The notes beneath the pieces are model-generated. The model was given only the letters and a program-made list of their open reading frames with translations. It did not search any database and was not told the DNA's origin. A stretch of DNA of 39,743 bases. Source: Candidatus Nomurabacteria bacterium. Lineage in GTDB: Bacteria; Patescibacteriota; Saccharimonadia; Saccharimonadales; Saccharimonadaceae. This document shows positions 3,438 to 31,263 of this stretch, piece after piece (position 1 is the first letter of the stretch; every line of letters starts with the position of its first letter). A program made the translations under genes and the position numbers. The stretch lies in assembly GCA_031264785.1 (NCBI GenBank), contig JAISDN010000058.1, positions 1 through 39,743 on the forward strand. Reading direction: 5' to 3'.

Positions 3438-3731
3438 ATGTTAGACGTTTTTATTACATCGCGGGTGCGCCGAAAAATCATTGTGGTTTATGCAAAATAC
3501 CCTGATTTTAAAACTCACGTTCGGGGTTTGGCCAAGCTAATCAAAGAAGATCCGGGCAATATTCAGCGCGAATTAAAACGTCTGGAAAAATCCGGTTTCC
3601 TCAGTATCGAGAAAAAGGGCAACGCTAAAGTTTATTCGACCAACAAAAGCTTCCCGATTTTTAAAGAATTGCAGAATATCGTCATCAAGTCACAACAAGC
3701 CGGCAAGGGCAAAAAGTCGGAAGATCTGTAA
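3438..3731 (+). CDS. Small winged-helix DNA-binding protein (ArsR/MarR-like wHTH)
   Basis: MLDVFITSRVRRKIIVVYAKYPD...VRGLAKLIKEDPGNIQRELKRLEKSGFLSIEKKGNAKVYS has an HTH-plus-wing pattern. I prefer the ATG at 3438 (GGGGAAG RBS at 3424-3430; promoter TTGCAT-17-TATAAT at 3372-3400) over the track start at 3372. Confidence 0.6.
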   Translation: MLDVFITSRVRRKIIVVYAKYPDFKTHVRGLAKLIKEDPGNIQRELKRLEKSGFLSIEKKGNAKVYSTNKSFPIFKELQNIVIKSQQAGKGKKSEDL

Positions 3732-3791
3732 GGCCTAGACATCCGGCGGATTTTCTGCTAAAATTACAAGAATAATAATATAAGGAATAAA

Positions 3792-4097
3792 ATGAAAGCA
3801 GTCATAAAGTTAGGCGGCAAACAATATATTGTCGCCGAAAAAGAGCGCCTTCTAGTGGATCGTCTCCCTGATGGTAGCAAAGATCTCTCACTTGATGCTT
3901 TGCTAATTTTCGACGAAAAAGGATCGAAAATCGGCCAGCCAACTGTGAAAGATATCAAAGTCACGGCCAAAGTCACCCAGCCGGAAATCAAGGGTGACAA
4001 AGTCCAATATATCCGCTACAAATCTAAAAAGCGGGTCCACAAAGTCAGCGGCCACCGCCAGCAATATAGCGAAATTGAGATTGTTTCGATAAAATAA
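3792..4097 (+). CDS. rplU: 50S ribosomal protein L21
   Basis: MKAVIKLGGKQYIVAEKERLLVDRL...HRQQYSEIEIVSI is a typical L21 sequence and length (101 aa). AAGGA RBS. Confidence 0.92.
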   Translation: MKAVIKLGGKQYIVAEKERLLVDRLPDGSKDLSLDALLIFDEKGSKIGQPTVKDIKVTAKVTQPEIKGDKVQYIRYKSKKRVHKVSGHRQQYSEIEIVSIK

Positions 4098-5784: not shown

Positions 5785-5811
5785 GTCATTCCGGACCTGA
5801 TCTGTATCCAG
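5785..5811. repeat. GTCATTCCGG-family palindromic intergenic repeat unit (degenerate)
   Basis: GTCATTCCGGACCTGATCTGTATCCAG. Compare the 30107-30134 unit GTCATTCCGGACTTGATCCGGAATCCAG. Confidence 0.7.
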
Positions 5812-9187: not shown

Positions 9188-9263
9188 GGAGCCATAGCTC
9201 AGCTGGTAGAGCACGGGCCTTTTAAGCCTGGTGTCGCGGGTTCGAGCCCCGCTGGCTCCTCCA
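9188..9263 (+). tRNA. tRNA-Lys (anticodon UUU), CCA encoded
   Basis: Folded by hand: acceptor GGAGCCA/TGGCTCC, D arm GCTC-AGCTGGTA-GAGC, anticodon arm CGGGC-CTTTTAA-GCCTG, variable GTGTC, T arm GCGGG-TTCGAGC-CCCGC, discriminator T, then CCA. Confidence 0.93.
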
Positions 9264-9312
9264 AAAACAGACTTTTTCAGAAACCGCTCGTTTTGGGCGA
9301 TTTTTGAAAATG

Positions 9313-9340
9313 CCGCGCTTCTGCAAGAAGGGCGGTTTTT
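9313..9340 (+). terminator. Intrinsic terminator after tRNA-Lys
   Basis: CCGC-G-CTTCT gca AGAAG-G-GCGG followed by TTTTT. Confidence 0.7.
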
Positions 9341-9351
9341 AAATAAAAGTG

Positions 9352-9380
9352 TTGACGTATTGTAAAGGGTGTGATATACT
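9352..9380 (+). promoter_or_regulatory. Near-consensus promoter driving the large ncRNA
   Basis: TTGACG (9352-9357), 17-nt spacer, TATACT (9375-9380) preceded by TGa (extended -10). Confidence 0.7.
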
Positions 9381-9393
9381 TTAGGTAGAAGTT

Positions 9394-9824
9394 GGAGTGG
9401 GGAGTTAAACTTGCATCTCCGACTTAGATTAGTGGCCGCCGTAGGGGAGAGGCCACAAAAACAGAGGGGGTAAAATGGCGTCTGCCGCGCAAGCTGAGTT
9501 GTATACCCTAACGGGCAACGGCAACAGTTTCCAACGCGGCAGCGCCGGAATGAAATGCAGATTATTCTGCTTTTATTCCGGCGCTCGTTGCTACATTCGA
9601 GCGTTACTTTTTACTGCCTTCTGGGGCTCGTGGTGGCGCAAGTCGCCACGAGTCCCAACCTGAAATTTCCCGTCCGGGAAGCACCGTCAAGGGGCGAAAG
9701 CCCCACACATTTTTTCCCCTTTCGAAAAAAGCAAATTGACTACAGACGGTGCTCCCGGTCGGGACGAGGGCTGGATAGACAACTTTATCCAATCAATAAG
9801 ATTCTATTTCTAGCCCTTGCTCCT
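9394..9824 (+). ncRNA. Large structured RNA (~430 nt), tmRNA (ssrA)-like layout but atypical; identity unconfirmed
   Basis: Has its own promoter (9352-9380) and a 12-bp-stem terminator (9830-9866). Many helices (coordinates in findings), including an H-type pseudoknot at 9416-9456 followed by an A-rich linker. A short Ala-rich frame (9515-9553) has its stop inside a helix. GAC/GGAC motifs and a terminal 7-bp helix (9394-9400 with 9817-9823) abut a 5-bp stem, as in a tRNA-like domain. The ORFs here (62 and 95 aa) have implausible composition. Confidence 0.5.
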
Positions 9825-9829
9825 TCCCC

Positions 9830-9866
9830 GAGGCCAATGTGATTACACATTGGCCTCATTTTTTTT
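9830..9866 (+). terminator. Strong intrinsic terminator of the ncRNA
   Basis: GAGGCCAATGTG atta CACATTGGCCTC (perfect 12-bp stem) followed by A and T8. Confidence 0.85.
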
Positions 9867-9880
9867 GCTACAATATATCT

Positions 9881-11389
9881 ATGTTCGGTTGGCGATTTTG
9901 GTTTCGACGGATTCATATTTCTTGGCTGGTGGCCGGAGTTTGCGCTGGATTTTTGCTGGGCGTGGGCCTGTGCTTGATCCCGGCGACGGCGGTTTTTGGC
10001 ACCAAAATCTGGCTGATTTTCGGCTTGCTGTTGCTACCGATTATTTTTTATAAACAAAAAACTTGGATGATGATTTTGGCAATTCTGGCCGGCAGTTTTA
10101 TGGGGCTGTTTCGCGGCACGGCGGAACGAGTGGCCTTGAGCGACTATGGCCAGTTTATTAACCAGACTTTGACGATTTCTGGCAAGGTTTTTGAAGATCC
10201 TGACTTGGGTCTGTCCGGCGATTTGCGGATGCGCTTGGTGGAGGTGGAAATCGACGGTCAAAAACTGCCCGGTCAAGTCTGGACTAGTATCATTGGCGCG
10301 CGGCCGGAAATCCGGCGGTCAGACACGGTTTTTATCACCGGCAAGCTGAAAAATGGTTTTGGCACTTTTCCGGCCAGTATGAGTTTTGCGAAATTGGACA
10401 AAGTTGAAGCTGGCGTGGGTAACGATCCGGCGCGGGATTTGCGCGACGAATTTTCTGAACAATTAAGTTATTCAGTTTCTGGTCCGGCCCACGATCTGGG
10501 GATGGGCGTTTTGGCAGGGCAGAAAACCGCTCTGCCCAACGACATTAGCGAAGCTTTTCGGATTGCCGGTCTGACCCACATTGTGGTGGCCAGCGGCTAT
10601 AATTTGACAATTTTGATTCGGTTTTCGCGCCGGCTGTTCGCCAGAATCAGCCGGCTGGCGGCGCTGCTGGGCGGCGGCACAATGGCGCTGGGGTTTGCTT
10701 TTGTGACTGGTTTTTCGCCCAGTATGATGCGGGCGGGTTTGGTGGCCGGCCTGAGTTTGCTAGCTTGGTTTTATGGTCGAAAATTCCATCCGGTGGTCTT
10801 GATTTTGTTGGTGGCGGCCGCCACAGTGGCCATCAATCCGGCCTATGTTTGGGGTGACGCCGGCTGGTATATGTCGTTTTTCGCCTTTGCCGGCATTCTG
10901 ATTTTGGCGCCGCTTATCAAAGCTTATTTTTGGGGCGAAGCGCGGCCCAAGCCGAAAATTAAATTGCGTCACAAACGACCGACAGCAATTTTGACCTCGC
11001 TGCGCCAAGTTTTTATCGAAACTATGAGCGCCCAAGTTTTGACTATGCCAATTATCGCCCTGATGTTGGGGCAGTTTGCGCCTTATGGGATTTTGGCGAA
11101 TCTGCTGGTGCTACCGCTGGTGCCGCTAACAATGCTGCTGACTTTTTTGGCCGGAATTATTGGCGCGATTTTGCCAAATTTGGCCGCGTTAGCCGGTTGG
11201 CCAGCCCAAACTTTGCTAGACTATATCATCGGTGTGTCGCAAGCCGTGTCGAATATTCCCGGCGCGGCCCAAGAAGTCAATTTCGGGGTCAGCTGGTTTG
11301 TGATTTCAATAACGATTTTGCTGGCGCTACTGATTTATCTACGCCTCAAAACTAAACATAATTTGCGCGAAGATAATATTGTGGCCTAG
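9881..11389 (+). CDS. comEC: ComEC/Rec2-family DNA internalization channel (short form, no beta-lactamase domain)
   Basis: Polytopic membrane protein with GLTHIVVASGYNLTIL (competence-domain motif). I prefer the ATG at 9881, because the track start at 9839 lies inside the upstream terminator hairpin. TGcTACAAT (9866-9874) sits 6 nt before this ATG. Confidence 0.8.
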   Translation: MFGWRFWFRRIHISWLVAGVCAGFLLGVGLCLIPATAVFGTKIWLIFGLLLLPIIFYKQKTWMMILAILAGSFMGLFRGTAERVALSDYGQFINQTLTISGKVFEDPDLGLSGDLRMRLVEVEIDGQKLPGQVWTSIIGARPEIRRSDTVFITGKLKNGFGTFPASMSFAKLDKVEAGVGNDPARDLRDEFSEQLSYSVSGPAHDLGMGVLAGQKTALPNDISEAFRIAGLTHIVVASGYNLTILIRFSRRLFARISRLAALLGGGTMALGFAFVTGFSPSMMRAGLVAGLSLLAWFYGRKFHPVVLILLVAAATVAINPAYVWGDAGWYMSFFAFAGILILAPLIKAYFWGEARPKPKIKLRHKRPTAILTSLRQVFIETMSAQVLTMPIIALMLGQFAPYGILANLLVLPLVPLTMLLTFLAGIIGAILPNLAALAGWPAQTLLDYIIGVSQAVSNIPGAAQEVNFGVSWFVISITILLALLIYLRLKTKHNLREDNIVA

Positions 11390-12966: not shown

Positions 12967-13557
12967 ATGAAGAATTATTTAGTGCCCACAGTTGTGGAAA
13001 AAGGTTTTGACGGCGAGCGAGCCTTTGATATTTATTCGCGACTATTAAAAGATAGGATTATTTTTCTTGGTGAGGAAGTCAATGAGCACACCGCCAATCT
13101 GGTGGTGGCGCAGCTGCTTTTCTTAGCCAGCGAGGATCCGAAGGCCGACATTAGCCTGTATATAAATAGTCCGGGCGGCAGCGTTTATGACGGTTTGGCG
13201 ATTTATGACACAATGAATTTTATCAAGCCGGACGTGGCGACTTATGGCATTGGCCTGCAGGCTTCGATGGGGGCGTTTTTGCTGTCCAGCGGCGCCAAGG
13301 GCAAGCGCCATATGCTGCCCAACGCCAAAACGATGATTCATCAGCCGTCCTCTGGCACAAAGGGGCAGATTACTGATATGGAGATTTCGCTGCGTGAGGG
13401 ATTGGCCCTGAAAGACAAATTGGCGGAGATTTTAGCGAAGAACACCGGTCAAAAACTAGCCAAAATCAAAGAAGATATGGAGCGCGACCACTGGCTAAGG
13501 GCTGAGGAGGCGGTGGATTATGGGCTGGTGGATGAGGTTTTGAAGAGTAGTAAATAG
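12967..13557 (+). CDS. clpP: ATP-dependent Clp protease proteolytic subunit
   Basis: VPTVVEK...[37 protein letters not shown] (catalytic Ser), MIHQPS (His). I prefer the start at 12967 (MKNYLVP); the track start at 12940 lies within the promoter. Confidence 0.93.
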
Positions 13558-13558
13558 C

Positions 13559-13572
13559 ATTCGTCATTCTGG
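13559..13572. repeat. 14-bp direct repeat ATTCGTCATTCTGG (left copy), part of the GTCATTC repeat family
   Basis: An identical 14-mer recurs at 14662-14675. Together they bracket the 320-aa ORF. Confidence 0.85.
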
Positions 13573-14541: not shown

Positions 14542-14653
14542 AAATTGTCCTTTTCTTTTTGTTTTTAATAAGATTTATGTGTTCATCTTAGCGAAATAAT
14601 TTAAAAAAGTCAACAGTTTTATCTAAAAGTGTTGGATGGGCTAGGGGGGGCAG

Positions 14654-14725
14654 CAAATAGGATTCGTCATTCTGGATTCCGCGTCAAGCGCGGAATGACT
14701 GAGTTGCTATTTGGAATGACGGGAT
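14654..14725. repeat. Composite palindromic repeat of the GTCATTC/GGAATGAC family
   Basis: CAAATAG-GATTCGTCATTCTGGATTCCGCGtcaaGCGCGGAATGAC-tgagttg-CTATTTG-GAATGACGGGATT. Nested inverted repeats, preceded by a G7 run at 14644-14650. Confidence 0.75.
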
Positions 14726-22294: not shown

Positions 22295-22304
22295 AAACCC
22301 GCAA

Positions 22305-22394
22305 CTGGATTCCGAGTCAATACCGAATCAGGTCCGGCTGATGTTGTCCGGAATGACAAACACCCGTCATTCCGGCCCTCGAGCCGGAATCCAG
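22305..22394. repeat. 90-bp palindromic composite of two inverted GTCATTCCGG-family units (MITE/REP-like), immediately 3' of rpoC
   Basis: Termini CTGGATTCCG...CGGAATCCAG are exact inverted repeats. Internal ...GTCCGGAATGAC aaacaccc GTCATTCCGGCCctcgaGCCGGAATCCAG. Confidence 0.8.
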
Positions 22395-22401
22395 AAAAGG
22401 T

Positions 22402-29010: not shown

Positions 29011-30102
29011 ATGAGTAGTATTTTTGAAAAAATGAGTGGGAAATGGCATAGCCTCAACCGACGAGGTCAGCGCCGCGCGATGGCGGTTGGCTATAGTTTG
29101 AGTTTGCTGGCTCTTTTGGTGGTTTTGGCGATTTTTTATCAGTCGCCGAGCGGTATGGAAACCGGCGTGGTTTTGAACGACGGCGGCACTAAAAACGCCT
29201 ATTTGGAACAGACCAAAGAGGTTGAAGTAGTGGTGGACGTGGCGGCACAGGCCCGGCTGTCGACGGCTAATAACGTGGCCGAGCGGGCGATTTCGGTGGT
29301 GACCAAAAGCGAATTGGCCCAAAACGACGAAACTGTGATTTCCAAACCGGTGCTGTCGGCGGATAGCACCAACAATTCGATTACTAAATATGTGGCGGTG
29401 GCTGGCGACAACGTGGCCAAAATTGCTACGATGTTTGGCATTAGCGAGCAGACAGTCAAATGGGCTAATAATTTGACGGGGAATAGCGTGGCGGTCGGCG
29501 CGACGTTGGTGATTCCGGTGGTGGACGGCGTGGTTTATAAAGTCAAATCCGGCGATTCGCTAAAAAGTTTGGCCAAAAAATATCGCGGCTCGGCTAGTTT
29601 GATTGCTTCTCAAAATAATATTACTGGCGCGCTAAAGGCCGGCGAGGTGATTGTGATTCCAAATGGCGTGCTGCCGCAAAACGAGCGGCCGGGTTATGCC
29701 GCGCCGTCTAATAATCCGTCATATGGCGTCAATTCTTATTTTGCTAGCAATTATACCCTGAACATTGGCACCAGCAAGGCCGGCAACAACTATTCCTATG
29801 GCTACTGCACGTGGTATGCCTACAATCGCCGCGTCGAACTGGGCAAAGCCGCTTATCGCAGCTTGGGCAACGCCAACACGTGGGACGATCGTTCGCGCGC
29901 CGCTGGCATTACCGTCAGCAGCAAACCCATCGCTGGCGCAATCTTCCAAACCGACGCCGGCTATTACGGCCACGTTGGCATTGTGGAAAGCGTCAACCCC
30001 GACGGCACCATCAACATCTCTGATATGAACGGCATCGCTGGCTGGAATCGAGTTGGCTTTAGAAATAACGTCAGTCCGTATAGTTATACGTATATTTACT
30101 AG
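29011..30102 (+). CDS. Secreted peptidoglycan hydrolase: 2x LysM plus a C-terminal CHAP (NlpC/P60-superfamily) domain
   Basis: TM/signal LSLLALLVVLAIF. LysM repeats YVAVAGDNVAKIATMFGISEQTVKWANNL and YKVKSGDSLKSLAKKYRGSASLIASQNNI. CHAP motifs YGYCTWYAY (Cys) and GHVGIVESV (His). Confidence 0.85.
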   Translation: MSSIFEKMSGKWHSLNRRGQRRAMAVGYSLSLLALLVVLAIFYQSPSGMETGVVLNDGGTKNAYLEQTKEVEVVVDVAAQARLSTANNVAERAISVVTKSELAQNDETVISKPVLSADSTNNSITKYVAVAGDNVAKIATMFGISEQTVKWANNLTGNSVAVGATLVIPVVDGVVYKVKSGDSLKSLAKKYRGSASLIASQNNITGALKAGEVIVIPNGVLPQNERPGYAAPSNNPSYGVNSYFASNYTLNIGTSKAGNNYSYGYCTWYAYNRRVELGKAAYRSLGNANTWDDRSRAAGITVSSKPIAGAIFQTDAGYYGHVGIVESVNPDGTINISDMNGIAGWNRVGFRNNVSPYSYTYIY

Positions 30103-30106
30103 CCTT

Positions 30107-30177
30107 GTCATTCCGGACTTGATCCGGAATCCAGAAATAAAACAACGTCTAGATTCCGGCTCGGAGGCCGGAATGAC
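30107..30177. repeat. Two inverted GTCATTCCGG-family units (MITE/REP-like) 3' of the hydrolase gene
   Basis: GTCATTCCGGACttgaTCCGGAATCCAG (30107-30134) ... CTAGATTCCGGCtcggagGCCGGAATGAC (30149-30177). Termini GTCATTCCGG/CCGGAATGAC are exact inverted repeats. Confidence 0.85.
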
Positions 30178-30220
30178 AAAGAAGTTCAGCATCTTTAGGG
30201 CAGCGAATAATAAATAAAAT

Positions 30221-30254
30221 AAAAAAATCGCCCCCAAAAGCTGGGGCGATTTTT
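30221..30254. terminator. Bidirectional intrinsic terminator between the convergent hydrolase and MIP genes
   Basis: A7-ATCGCCCC-caaaagct-GGGGCGAT-T5: an 8-bp GC-rich stem flanked by an A-run and a T-run. Confidence 0.8.
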
Positions 30255-30270
30255 AATTCAAGGGTTTATT

Positions 30271-31263
30271 TTATTTTTTATGACAATCGCAGCTGCAATC
30301 GCCACCCTCACAACAATCGCACGAATCTTTTAGTAAGAAGCGATAGCCGGTGATGCCGATGATGACGCCGGCGATGGTAGCGACGACGTAGGTGATGATG
30401 GGCCACATAATGTCGGTGGCATTCCATTCAGCACCGGTGAAGCCCCAGCCGTGCGCAAACGAACCAAGCGCGCCAGCGATGGCTGGATTTAGGATGACTG
30501 TTGAACCGCCAACCACGATACCGGCAAACAGACCGAAGCCTAGCGCCAAAGCTTTGATGATTGGTTTGTGAGCTTTCAAATATGCTACACCCGCGCCCAA
30601 GCCAAAGATGACTGCACCGACTAATTCGGAGAAGAAGGCCGCCAAGCCGTTGCCGCTGATGTTGTTGTCGACAAAGGTTGTGACGCCGATTCGCTCCGCC
30701 ATTTCGGCGATGCTGCTAAAGCCGTTAGACTTAGCAAATTCTAACAAGCCGCCAGCTTCGTCGATCATTTCTTGGGTCAAGCCTTGTTTGTTGATTAGGT
30801 TGTCAATAATTAGCGCTTCCGAGCCGCCAAACAGATCAATGCCGTTGGCCGCCGCGAAGATCGCTTTGAAAACCAAAAATGCTAAAACCGCACCCACTAC
30901 TTGGGCCACGATATAAAGCAGAGTTTTGACGCCGCCGATTTTGCGATTTGCCCACAGAGCAATCGTGATGGCGGGGTTGAAATGGGCCCGGCTAATGACA
31001 CCAAAGATAACCACTAAGGCGATTAGAACTAAGGCAATGCCAATTATGCCGGTTGTGCCGCCGGCGAACAGTGCGAAAAACGCACCGGTCAAAGTGAACG
31101 TGCCGATTAACTCGGCAATCAGCGCACTTGGTCGCGGCATCTTGCTTTCTTCAACTTTTTTGATCTCGGCAGCTTTGGCCGCCGCTGTCTTTCGTGTTGG
31201 TTTTGCACCAGTTTTTTTGGCCGGCGTTTTTTTACGCGCCGTAGTAGCCTTTCTTGTGGCCAT
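30271..31263 (-). CDS. MIP-family channel (aquaporin/glycerol-facilitator-like) with a basic N-terminal tail, a large loop insertion and a Cys-rich C-terminal tail
   Basis: Two NPA boxes (HFNPAITIA and ILNPAIAGA) and about six TM helices. N-terminus MATRKATTARKKTPAKKTGAKPTRKTAAAKAAEIKK. C-terminus CDCCEGGDCSCDCHKK. AAGGAGG RBS. Confidence 0.8.
   Translation of the reverse strand: MATRKATTARKKTPAKKTGAKPTRKTAAAKAAEIKKVEESKMPRPSALIAELIGTFTLTGAFFALFAGGTTGIIGIALVLIALVVIFGVISRAHFNPAITIALWANRKIGGVKTLLYIVAQVVGAVLAFLVFKAIFAAANGIDLFGGSEALIIDNLINKQGLTQEMIDEAGGLLEFAKSNGFSSIAEMAERIGVTTFVDNNISGNGLAAFFSELVGAVIFGLGAGVAYLKAHKPIIKALALGFGLFAGIVVGGSTVILNPAIAGALGSFAHGWGFTGAEWNATDIMWPIITYVVATIAGVIIGITGYRFLLKDSCDCCEGGDCSCDCHKK

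Follow-up and report, generated by a model that had tools for sequence, protein, structure and literature searches.

In a stretch of Saccharibacteria DNA of 39,743 nucleotides (nt) (contig JAISDN010000058.1 of GenBank assembly GCA_031264785.1; we refer to the whole of this stretch as the window), the spacer between the genes for tRNA-Lys(UUU) and the DNA-uptake protein ComEC holds what we read as a self-contained gene for an independently transcribed, orphan structured RNA (9352–9866, plus strand) which would act mainly as RNA, and we give this sequence-based reading a probability of about 0.5. The unit has promoter and terminator signals of its own, an exceptional fold that is specific to one strand, no counterpart in relatives and no match to any RNA family; it belongs to no curated family and in that sense is an orphan, and by type it counts among the lineage-specific RNA genes of bacteria. 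A preliminary description of the same DNA, made from the letters alone, had hesitated between a divergent or degenerate transfer-messenger RNA (tmRNA, the product of ssrA) and a different, unassigned large RNA. Its core claim, namely that the DNA specifies a large structured RNA and provides it with a promoter and a terminator, is borne out by our analyses, and the second of its two options is where the evidence ends up.

Signals and fold of the RNA unit

Both the near-consensus extended –10 promoter (TTGACG-17-TGaTATACT) and the perfect 12-bp terminator with its T8 tract named in that description were recovered by our scans, at 9352–9380 and with a stem at 9830–9857, respectively. The promoter is one of about ten sites in the window which score at least 10/12 with an upstream TG, while the terminator ranks first among all terminator-like sites of the whole window, and the two lie on one strand and flank the window's most structured stretch. 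No promoter-like site was found on the minus strand within the RNA unit by promoter scan or motif listing. From spacing only, we place the start of transcription at about 9387 (A) or 9388 (G), and with a U-tract at 9859–9866 this would give an RNA of some 473–480 nt; it should be noted that we infer from the sequence that the unit is transcribed, where precisely its RNA starts and ends, and how it would act. The features of the unit are as follows (MFE, minimum free energy; z-scores are those of folding):

9352–9380, plus strand: promoter with –35 TTGACG, 17-nt spacer and extended –10 TGaTATACT (10/12 matches plus TG)
9389–9456, plus strand: 5' module of two hairpins, H1 and H2, from the MFE fold (pair probabilities 0.99–1.0; z = –4.1 on the plus and –2.2 on the minus strand)
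9457–9477, plus strand: A-rich linker AAAAACA, Shine-Dalgarno (SD)-like GAGGGGG (9464–9470) and first AUG (9475–9477), read from the sequence
9464–9620, plus strand: predicted central four-way-junction domain with three arms (z = –7.5 on the plus and –5.4 on the minus strand)
9622–9657, plus strand: 16-bp hairpin (9622–9637 / 9642–9657) that includes 3 G-U pairs and is capped by a GCAA (GNRA) tetraloop, from the MFE fold
9668–9764, plus strand: predicted 3' domain made of a 19-bp three-segment helix (9668–9688 / 9745–9764) and a three-way junction (z = –7.4)
9765–9829, plus strand: predicted irregular A/U-rich tail hairpin (9765–9779 / 9803–9819), then the C/U-rich single strand GCUCCUUCCCC (z = –2.6)
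9830–9866, plus strand: intrinsic terminator found by scan, with a perfect 12-bp stem (9830–9857), AUUA loop and U8 tract (9859–9866)

The 480-nt transcript (9387–9866) has a predicted MFE of –231.5 kcal/mol compared with –149.8 ± 6.4 kcal/mol for dinucleotide shuffles (z = –12.8), and without the terminator the RNA still reaches z = –11.0, whereas the reverse complement of the 480-nt transcript gives –201.2 kcal/mol (z = –7.3). All of the sub-domains are individually significant, and the plus strand is the more stable of the two both overall and per sub-domain, the only exceptions being the 3' domain and the palindromic terminator, for which both strands give equal stability. The difference is particularly clear for the 16-bp hairpin, with –32.3 kcal/mol (z = –7.8) on the plus strand and –20.0 kcal/mol (z = –3.1) on the minus strand. 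The MFE fold comprises 148 pairs over 440 nt, so that some two thirds of the bases are paired, and 15 of these predicted pairs are G-U, at which the opposite strand would have A-C mismatches. A structure scan of the window in 528 segments of 150 nt placed the top two segments by z, and three of the top four, in the RNA region (z = –12.3, –8.1 and –7.1 against a background of –0.5 ± 1.5). These predictions confirm that the fold is beyond chance and specific to the strand which bears the promoter and terminator.

In the predicted structure, five modules fold on their own, and these are the two 5' hairpins, the four-way junction, the 16-bp hairpin, the 19-bp helix with its three-way junction, and the tail hairpin. 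H1 is a 9-bp helix (9389–9397 / 9417–9425) with an ensemble probability of 0.99 and H2 is a 6-bp helix (9432–9437 / 9451–9456), and the loops of both carry the SD-like, G-rich GGGGAG. The central domain is closed by 9464–9467 / 9617–9620 and 9469–9475 / 9609–9615, from which an irregular long arm with a UAAC loop (9477–9546) and two hairpins (9547–9579 and 9580–9605) emerge. The 10-nt single-stranded linker that follows the 16-bp hairpin (9658–9667) contains the UGA of a 62-codon frame to which we return below, and the three-way junction of the 3' domain holds the GGGGC-GAAA-GCCCC hairpin, a weak U6C/GA6 hairpin with the loop CCCUUUC, and the 14-nt single strand GCAAAUUGACUACA, for which pairing targets within the window were found at chance level only. 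Among roughly five tetraloops there are two of the GNRA type (GCAA and GAAA) and one UAAC, which would fit a designed fold, but this argument is tempered by the ordinary terminators of this DNA as these are also GNRA-capped (e.g. 9318–9321).

The helices previously found by hand are all complementary as described, with three corrections in position or extent. CGCUCG does pair with CGAGCG, although the latter lies at 9598–9603 rather than 9597–9602; the hairpin given as 11 bp (9623–9633 / 9646–9656) is present and is in fact the 16-bp hairpin with the GCAA loop; and the 14-bp long-range helix is present as part of the 19-bp three-segment helix. The strands of the proposed H-type pseudoknot are also complementary, but its first stem (UCUCC / GGAGA) competes with the 9-bp H1 and is best regarded as an alternative pairing in the 5' module.

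We searched Rfam 15 with the whole window at gathering thresholds, and with 701 nt around the unit (9250–9950) at E ≤ 10. The sole match in the first search was the tRNA, and in the second we found only sub-threshold matches to microRNA-type hairpins. RNase P, signal recognition particle (SRP) and 6S RNAs, group I and II introns, riboswitches and the T-box were without a match at either threshold, as were OLE, ROOL, GOLLD, HEARO and raiA.

The 62-codon frame and the tmRNA-like layout

The preliminary description saw no credible open reading frame (ORF) in the unit, and this was too strong, as GAGGGGG is followed at a distance of 7 nt by the first AUG (9475), from which a frame of 62 codons runs:

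9475–9663, plus strand: candidate 62-codon ORF MASAAQAELYTLTGNGNSFQRGSAGMKCRLFCFYSGARCYIRALLFTAFWGSWWRKSPRVPT, from the ORF list, with its stop in the linker 9658–9667

The unit might consequently be a structure-gated mRNA for a small basic protein of 62 aa, built like the type I toxin mRNAs hok, tisB and aapA1, which we consider unlikely. Such a message would have an 88-nt 5' untranslated region (UTR) with an A-rich standby site, an SD and AUG sequestered by the helix that closes the central domain, and a structured 3' UTR of 200 nt serving to stabilise or gate it. In keeping with this, the SD resembles those of the window's real genes (e.g. GAGGAGGGTAAATG), both SD and AUG are base-paired in the MFE structure (GAGG at 9464–9467 and GGUAAAA at 9469–9475, a sequestration that is predicted only), the ORF starts and stops at module boundaries, and the predicted peptide, which is strongly basic (+7), is aromatic and hydrophobic in its C-terminal half. 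The codon usage of the frame speaks against it, with a log-odds score of –0.04 compared with 0.43 ± 0.19 for real genes and –0.62 ± 0.26 for off-frames, which falls below the 5th percentile (0.03) of real 62-codon windows, and two other overlapping ORFs score about equally so that none of the three stands out. ORF length means little here because stop codons are scarce in the region as a whole and several frames contain open stretches of 60–114 codons. The product is without a Pfam match, searches of 1.84 billion representatives and of 5.8 billion proteins gave no homologue for it, and no clear membrane-spanning segment is seen, as the highest Kyte-Doolittle mean over 19 aa is 1.12 and the stretch in question contains two Arg; no gene was called over the RNA stretch on the contig of an independent Logan assembly (see below); and no antisense or divergent antitoxin promoter was found. 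The unit thus shares with type I toxin mRNAs a length of around 400 nt and a high degree of structure, a helix-sequestered SD, an A-rich standby-like stretch and a short ORF, and differs from them in lacking a clear transmembrane helix in its peptide and an antitoxin promoter, and in its neutral codon usage.

The likeness to tmRNA (RF00023, with permuted forms RF01849–RF01851) lies in the size of the RNA, its own promoter and terminator, and an order of parts which runs from a possible terminal helix through a possible H-type pseudoknot near the 5' end, an A-rich linker and a short Ala-rich frame to GGGAC, a 5-bp stem and a 7-nt strand, with RNA ends which could in principle pair. The adjacent tRNA-Lys furthermore begins its acceptor with the same four pairs (GGAG / CUCC) as the putative acceptor of the RNA, and a divergent or degenerate ssrA might have a tRNA-like end modelled on that gene. 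We regard an ssrA of any such kind as highly improbable, and its most exotic version, in which a tmRNA-like molecule would carry a tRNA-like end copied from the neighbouring tRNA-Lys, as scarcely credible. ARAGORN, which had been proposed as a check along with Rfam, reported only the tRNA-Lys and no tmRNA, and no tmRNA model, standard or permuted, matched the whole window at the gathering score or the 701 nt at E ≤ 10.

The conflicts with a canonical tmRNA already listed in the preliminary description were upheld feature by feature. There is no 7-nt T-loop, as the GGGCU / AGCCC stem encloses 39 nt and is part of the extended irregular hairpin at 9765–9819, within which there is also no T-loop-like sequence of the GUUCRANYC type. 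The G3:U70 identity pair for alanine is absent and position 3:70 would be A-U; there is no 3' CCA, with the putative acceptor strand followed by UUCCCC and then the terminator hairpin; and the tag lacks a hydrophobic end, as the frame at 9515–9553 reads ATATVSNAAAPE before its stop and ends in APE. The terminal helix that had been suggested (9394–9400 / 9817–9823) does not hold, as a penalty of +8 kcal/mol has to be paid to force it and it has an ensemble probability of about 0, and this acceptor helix is disfavoured because its GGAG is taken by the 9-bp H1. When the tRNA-Lys was aligned with the insert, the best local alignment did fall at the putative acceptor end, but 76% of shuffles scored as well. 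There is no smpB in the window, no tmRNA within 4 kb of comEC in the relatives, and an RNA-family search of the comEC neighbourhoods of the 14 nearest relatives found tRNAs only. As described in the next section, the unit is also a lineage-specific insertion which is absent from the orthologous site and therefore unlike the essential and conserved ssrA. We have rejected tmRNA on these grounds, which combine ARAGORN, Rfam at two thresholds, the feature checks, constrained folding and a non-conserved site, and note that this RNA is a caution that a tmRNA-like layout seen by eye need not be a tmRNA.

Absence from relatives and the origin of the segment

The host belongs to the Saccharibacteria (TM7, Patescibacteria), where it was placed by ComEC homologues and 80 genome loci. 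Its nearest relatives have ComEC identities of 50–65% and are mostly metagenome-assembled genomes (MAGs) from the termite gut (PMC7024585), the closest ComEC in a search of 5.8 billion proteins, besides that of the organism itself, is 65% identical, and the organism has no sequenced close relative. The features next to the RNA unit are:

9188–9263, plus strand: tRNA-Lys(UUU) gene, the upstream neighbour, outside the RNA (Rfam tRNA, 69.1 bits; ARAGORN anticodon ttt)
9285–9338, plus strand: two terminator-like hairpins closing the tRNA unit, CGCTCG..GGGCG+T5 and then CCGCGCTTCT-GCAA-AGAAGGGCGG+T5 (the first found by scan and the second read from the sequence)
9866–9874, plus strand: comEC extended –10 TGcTACAAT, 6 nt upstream of the ATG at 9881–9883, from motif listing and with the same layout in relatives

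The order of tRNA-Lys followed by comEC is widespread in Saccharibacteria loci, with 25–65 nt from the end of the tRNA-Lys to comEC in two of them (L002 and L004), and 48–180 nt from the end of the upstream gene to comEC in three others (L100, L101 and L102). In the relatives, this spacer is made up of the tRNA terminator followed by TGTATACT or TGATATACT, an extended –10 which lies a few nt upstream of the ATG, and the window keeps this layout downstream of the RNA terminator. Because the spacer of the relatives is short and the window retains its layout, the approximately 600 nt at 9264–9865 are extra, and on this comparison the segment is a lineage-specific insertion in this Saccharibacteria lineage. 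The RNA is absent from the orthologous site, and from up to 4 kb around comEC, in 80 Saccharibacteria species, and also from the orthologous site in three further contigs (L100–L102). In a termite-gut relative (L006), the same spacer contains an unrelated insert of about 250 nt (3722–3975) flanked by two copies of a tRNA-terminator hairpin of about 35 nt (AAAATTTCGATCCTCGCGATCGA...), and the inserts in this spacer in L006, L009 and L067 are mostly terminator hairpins and are unrelated to the RNA. This suggests that the spacer between tRNA-Lys and comEC may be a recurrent site of insertion or recombination.

Searches for homologues elsewhere were uniformly negative. We found no RNA homologue among 81 loci using nhmmer and blastn; a single-sequence covariance model of the 3' domain recovered only the window's own sequence when run on 707 kb of DNA from Saccharibacteria; phage and plasmid sequences yielded no more than a short promoter-like, AT-rich match with BLAST; scans of viruses for patterns gave zero matches, or chance matches to GNRA hairpins without flank similarity; and a metagenome pattern scan gave two chance matches of 14–15 nt. 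Translated-frame searches were intended to catch mis-called ORFs lying over homologous RNAs, and these found nothing when the 62 aa were compared with 1.84 billion representatives, when a six-frame concatenate was compared with 5.8 billion proteins, or in tblastn-type viral scans.

The absence of the segment from the orthologous site in all relatives examined, along with the different insert in L006 with its duplicated terminator hairpin, is also what would be expected of a non-functional or selfish insertion, in which a mobile-element relic or a cluster of palindromes like the repetitive extragenic palindromic (REP) or bacterial interspersed mosaic element (BIME) repeats had entered a recombination-prone spacer and was transcribed incidentally. 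REP/BIME repeats resemble the unit as they are intergenic and form serial near-perfect hairpins with very negative folding z-scores, and one of the RNA hairpins has the CCGGAAT...ATTCCGG core of the palindromic repeats of this genome. The 8-mers that mark these repeats (GTCATTCC / GGAATGAC) occur seven times in the window compared with about 1.2 expected, and all but one of the occurrences are clearly intergenic; they are absent from the related loci save for two isolated matches in L012. We note that REP-like palindromic elements are found after or between genes at 5785, 13549–13572, 14652–14720, 22300–22396 and 30107–30177, as units of the form TCTGGATTCCGG-N6-8-CCGGAATGAC or GTCATTCCGG...CCGGAATCCAGAA which are often arranged as inverted pairs, and that the REP-like region 30076–30300 ranks second among the folding outliers of the window (z = –7.7). 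A 10-nt exact direct repeat, CAAAAACAGA, at 9262–9271 (the tRNA end) and 9456–9465 could also be taken as the trace of an insertion, but the number expected by chance for a repeat of this length in about 800 nt is estimated at about 0.3. The position of the two copies is worth recording, with the first overlapping the 3' CCA end of the tRNA-Lys and the second directly following the second 5' hairpin.

This explanation is nevertheless, in our opinion, rather doubtful. No second copy of any of the RNA hairpins was found in the 39.7-kb window (about 4% of a genome of about 1 Mb), and the segment has neither terminal inverted repeats, as a MITE would have, nor a significant att-like duplication of the tRNA end. 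Palindromic DNA would fold alike on both strands, whereas the RNA favours the plus strand through its G-U pairs, and the near-consensus promoter and the window's best terminator frame the RNA exactly. In contrast to REP/BIME repeats, the unit is thus single-copy in the window, strand-asymmetric in its fold, and provided with a dedicated promoter and terminator.

The order on the plus strand of promoter, long structured RNA, terminator and, 15 nt further on, a gene start is also that of a cis-acting, riboswitch-like 5' leader or attenuator that would control comEC through the terminator at 9830–9866. We judge this to be very unlikely, as comEC keeps its own extended –10 (TGcTACAAT) in a layout shared by relatives without the RNA, no antiterminator lies beside the terminator, both the MFE fold and the ensemble keep the tail hairpin separate, no riboswitch, T-box or leader family was matched in Rfam, and the 12 perfect pairs and U8 make for a very strong terminator. 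Because comEC retains its –10-to-ATG arrangement downstream of the terminator, as it does in L002, L015, L052 and L077, the RNA would be independent of comEC and the comEC –10 forms the downstream boundary of the unit. In the window and these four relatives, an extended –10 of the form TGnTAnAnT ends 6–10 nt upstream of the comEC ATG with no SD, which implies that the comEC mRNA would be leaderless or nearly so. A near repeat of the comEC extended –10 TGCTACAAT (9866–9874) occurs as TGCTACATT inside an RNA hairpin loop (9589–9597), probably by chance.

Full-length ComEC typically has a C-terminal metallo-β-lactamase domain. In the window, ComEC-type domains are found at 9881–11389 and the metallo-β-lactamase domain is absent, and the Saccharibacteria ComEC proteins more generally (that of the window and homologues P0002–P0120) have about 480–550 aa with only the DUF4131 and Competence domains. 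The window is chromosomal and its gene order is parA, parB, ribonucleotide reductase, a NUDIX protein, a GreA-like protein, tRNA-Lys(UUU), the RNA unit, comEC, tetR, yebC, clpP, rpoB, rpoC and further genes. The DnaA-box-like 9-mer TTTTCCACA occurs six times (12025, 12993, 14738, 22766, 37244 and 39237), and one-mismatch matches to TTATCCACA number 15 in the window compared with 7.4 ± 2.6 expected, a count reached in 0/100 shuffles, with several of these lying in promoter or intergenic stretches. Together with parA and parB, these DnaA-box-like matches may indicate that a replication origin is near the window.

The junctions around the RNA are real because they are reproduced in an independent assembly, the Logan assembly of run SRR14710921, which contains the 3' half of the tRNA, the RNA and comEC at 99.98% identity. 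This assembly breaks inside the tRNA-Lys gene, with one contig (L001) ending at 9233 and another (L082) starting at 9234. The break is likely to result from co-occurring relatives with near-identical tRNA-Lys genes, but it could alternatively reflect population heterogeneity in the tRNA-Lys–comEC spacer.

Possible mode of action and standing among large RNAs

If the unit is indeed the gene of an RNA which acts mainly as such, the product would most likely be a riboregulator, or a scaffold that binds protein or the ribosome, rather than chiefly a message. The loops of the two 5' hairpins would expose the G-rich, SD-like GGGGAG, while the loop CCCUUUC of the 3' domain and the pre-terminator tail CUCCUUCCCC would expose C/U-rich, anti-SD-like motifs. 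A dual function would also be possible, as with RNAIII of Staphylococcus aureus, since the first AUG with its good SD opens the 62-codon frame. RNAIII is a dual-function regulator which acts through C-rich loops and also encodes a small peptide, and the unit described here is similar in its length of about 500 nt, its independence, its many hairpins, its C/U-rich unpaired motifs and a small ORF in the 5' half. There is, however, no sequence or structural homology between the two, the target and quorum-sensing context of RNAIII have no counterpart here, and RNAIII offers an analogy of mechanism only and not of membership.

Several observations made above weigh against an RNA function. The SD-preceded first AUG and a 62-codon frame bounded by module edges fit an mRNA; very long perfect helices are as usual in palindromic repeat DNA as they are in functional RNA, and this genome has small palindromic intergenic repeats of its own; homologues were found nowhere, which leaves the helices without support from covariation and the function without an argument from conservation; and the suggested mimicry of SD and anti-SD sequences would depend on short motifs in predicted loops for which there is no statistical support.

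OLE, ROOL, GOLLD, HEARO and raiA are further families with which the unit can be compared, as they are also large RNAs of unassigned role with multiway junctions and GNRA tetraloops, and ROOL and GOLLD often sit beside tRNA genes, as does the RNA here. These families differ in being defined by many covarying homologues, of which the RNA has none, and the unit further lies outside a prophage context, as judged by the gene content of the window and the phage BLAST search. More tentatively, and with a probability well below that of the RNA gene itself, the unit may found a new class of large structured RNAs (about 475 nt) that function as RNA in the Saccharibacteria / Patescibacteria and of which it is at present the one known example; such a class might have a standing comparable to OLE, ROOL and GOLLD, and would have been recently acquired by, or have evolved in, a lineage of the termite-gut type. 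A literature search for tmRNA or structured RNAs in Saccharibacteria found nothing relevant, and we know of no class of large ornate RNA that is specific to these ultra-small and genome-reduced bacteria.

Large ornate bacterial RNAs beyond those of the ribosome, RNase P and tmRNA are rare, and every new class has opened new biology. At present the unit stands as one sequence without relatives, and as a well-defined candidate for transcript mapping. In such a reduced genome, devoting around 600 nt to a single RNA unit with a strong promoter represents a considerable commitment, and if the RNA is expressed and functional, it would mean that streamlined episymbionts, too, invent lineage-specific structured RNAs.

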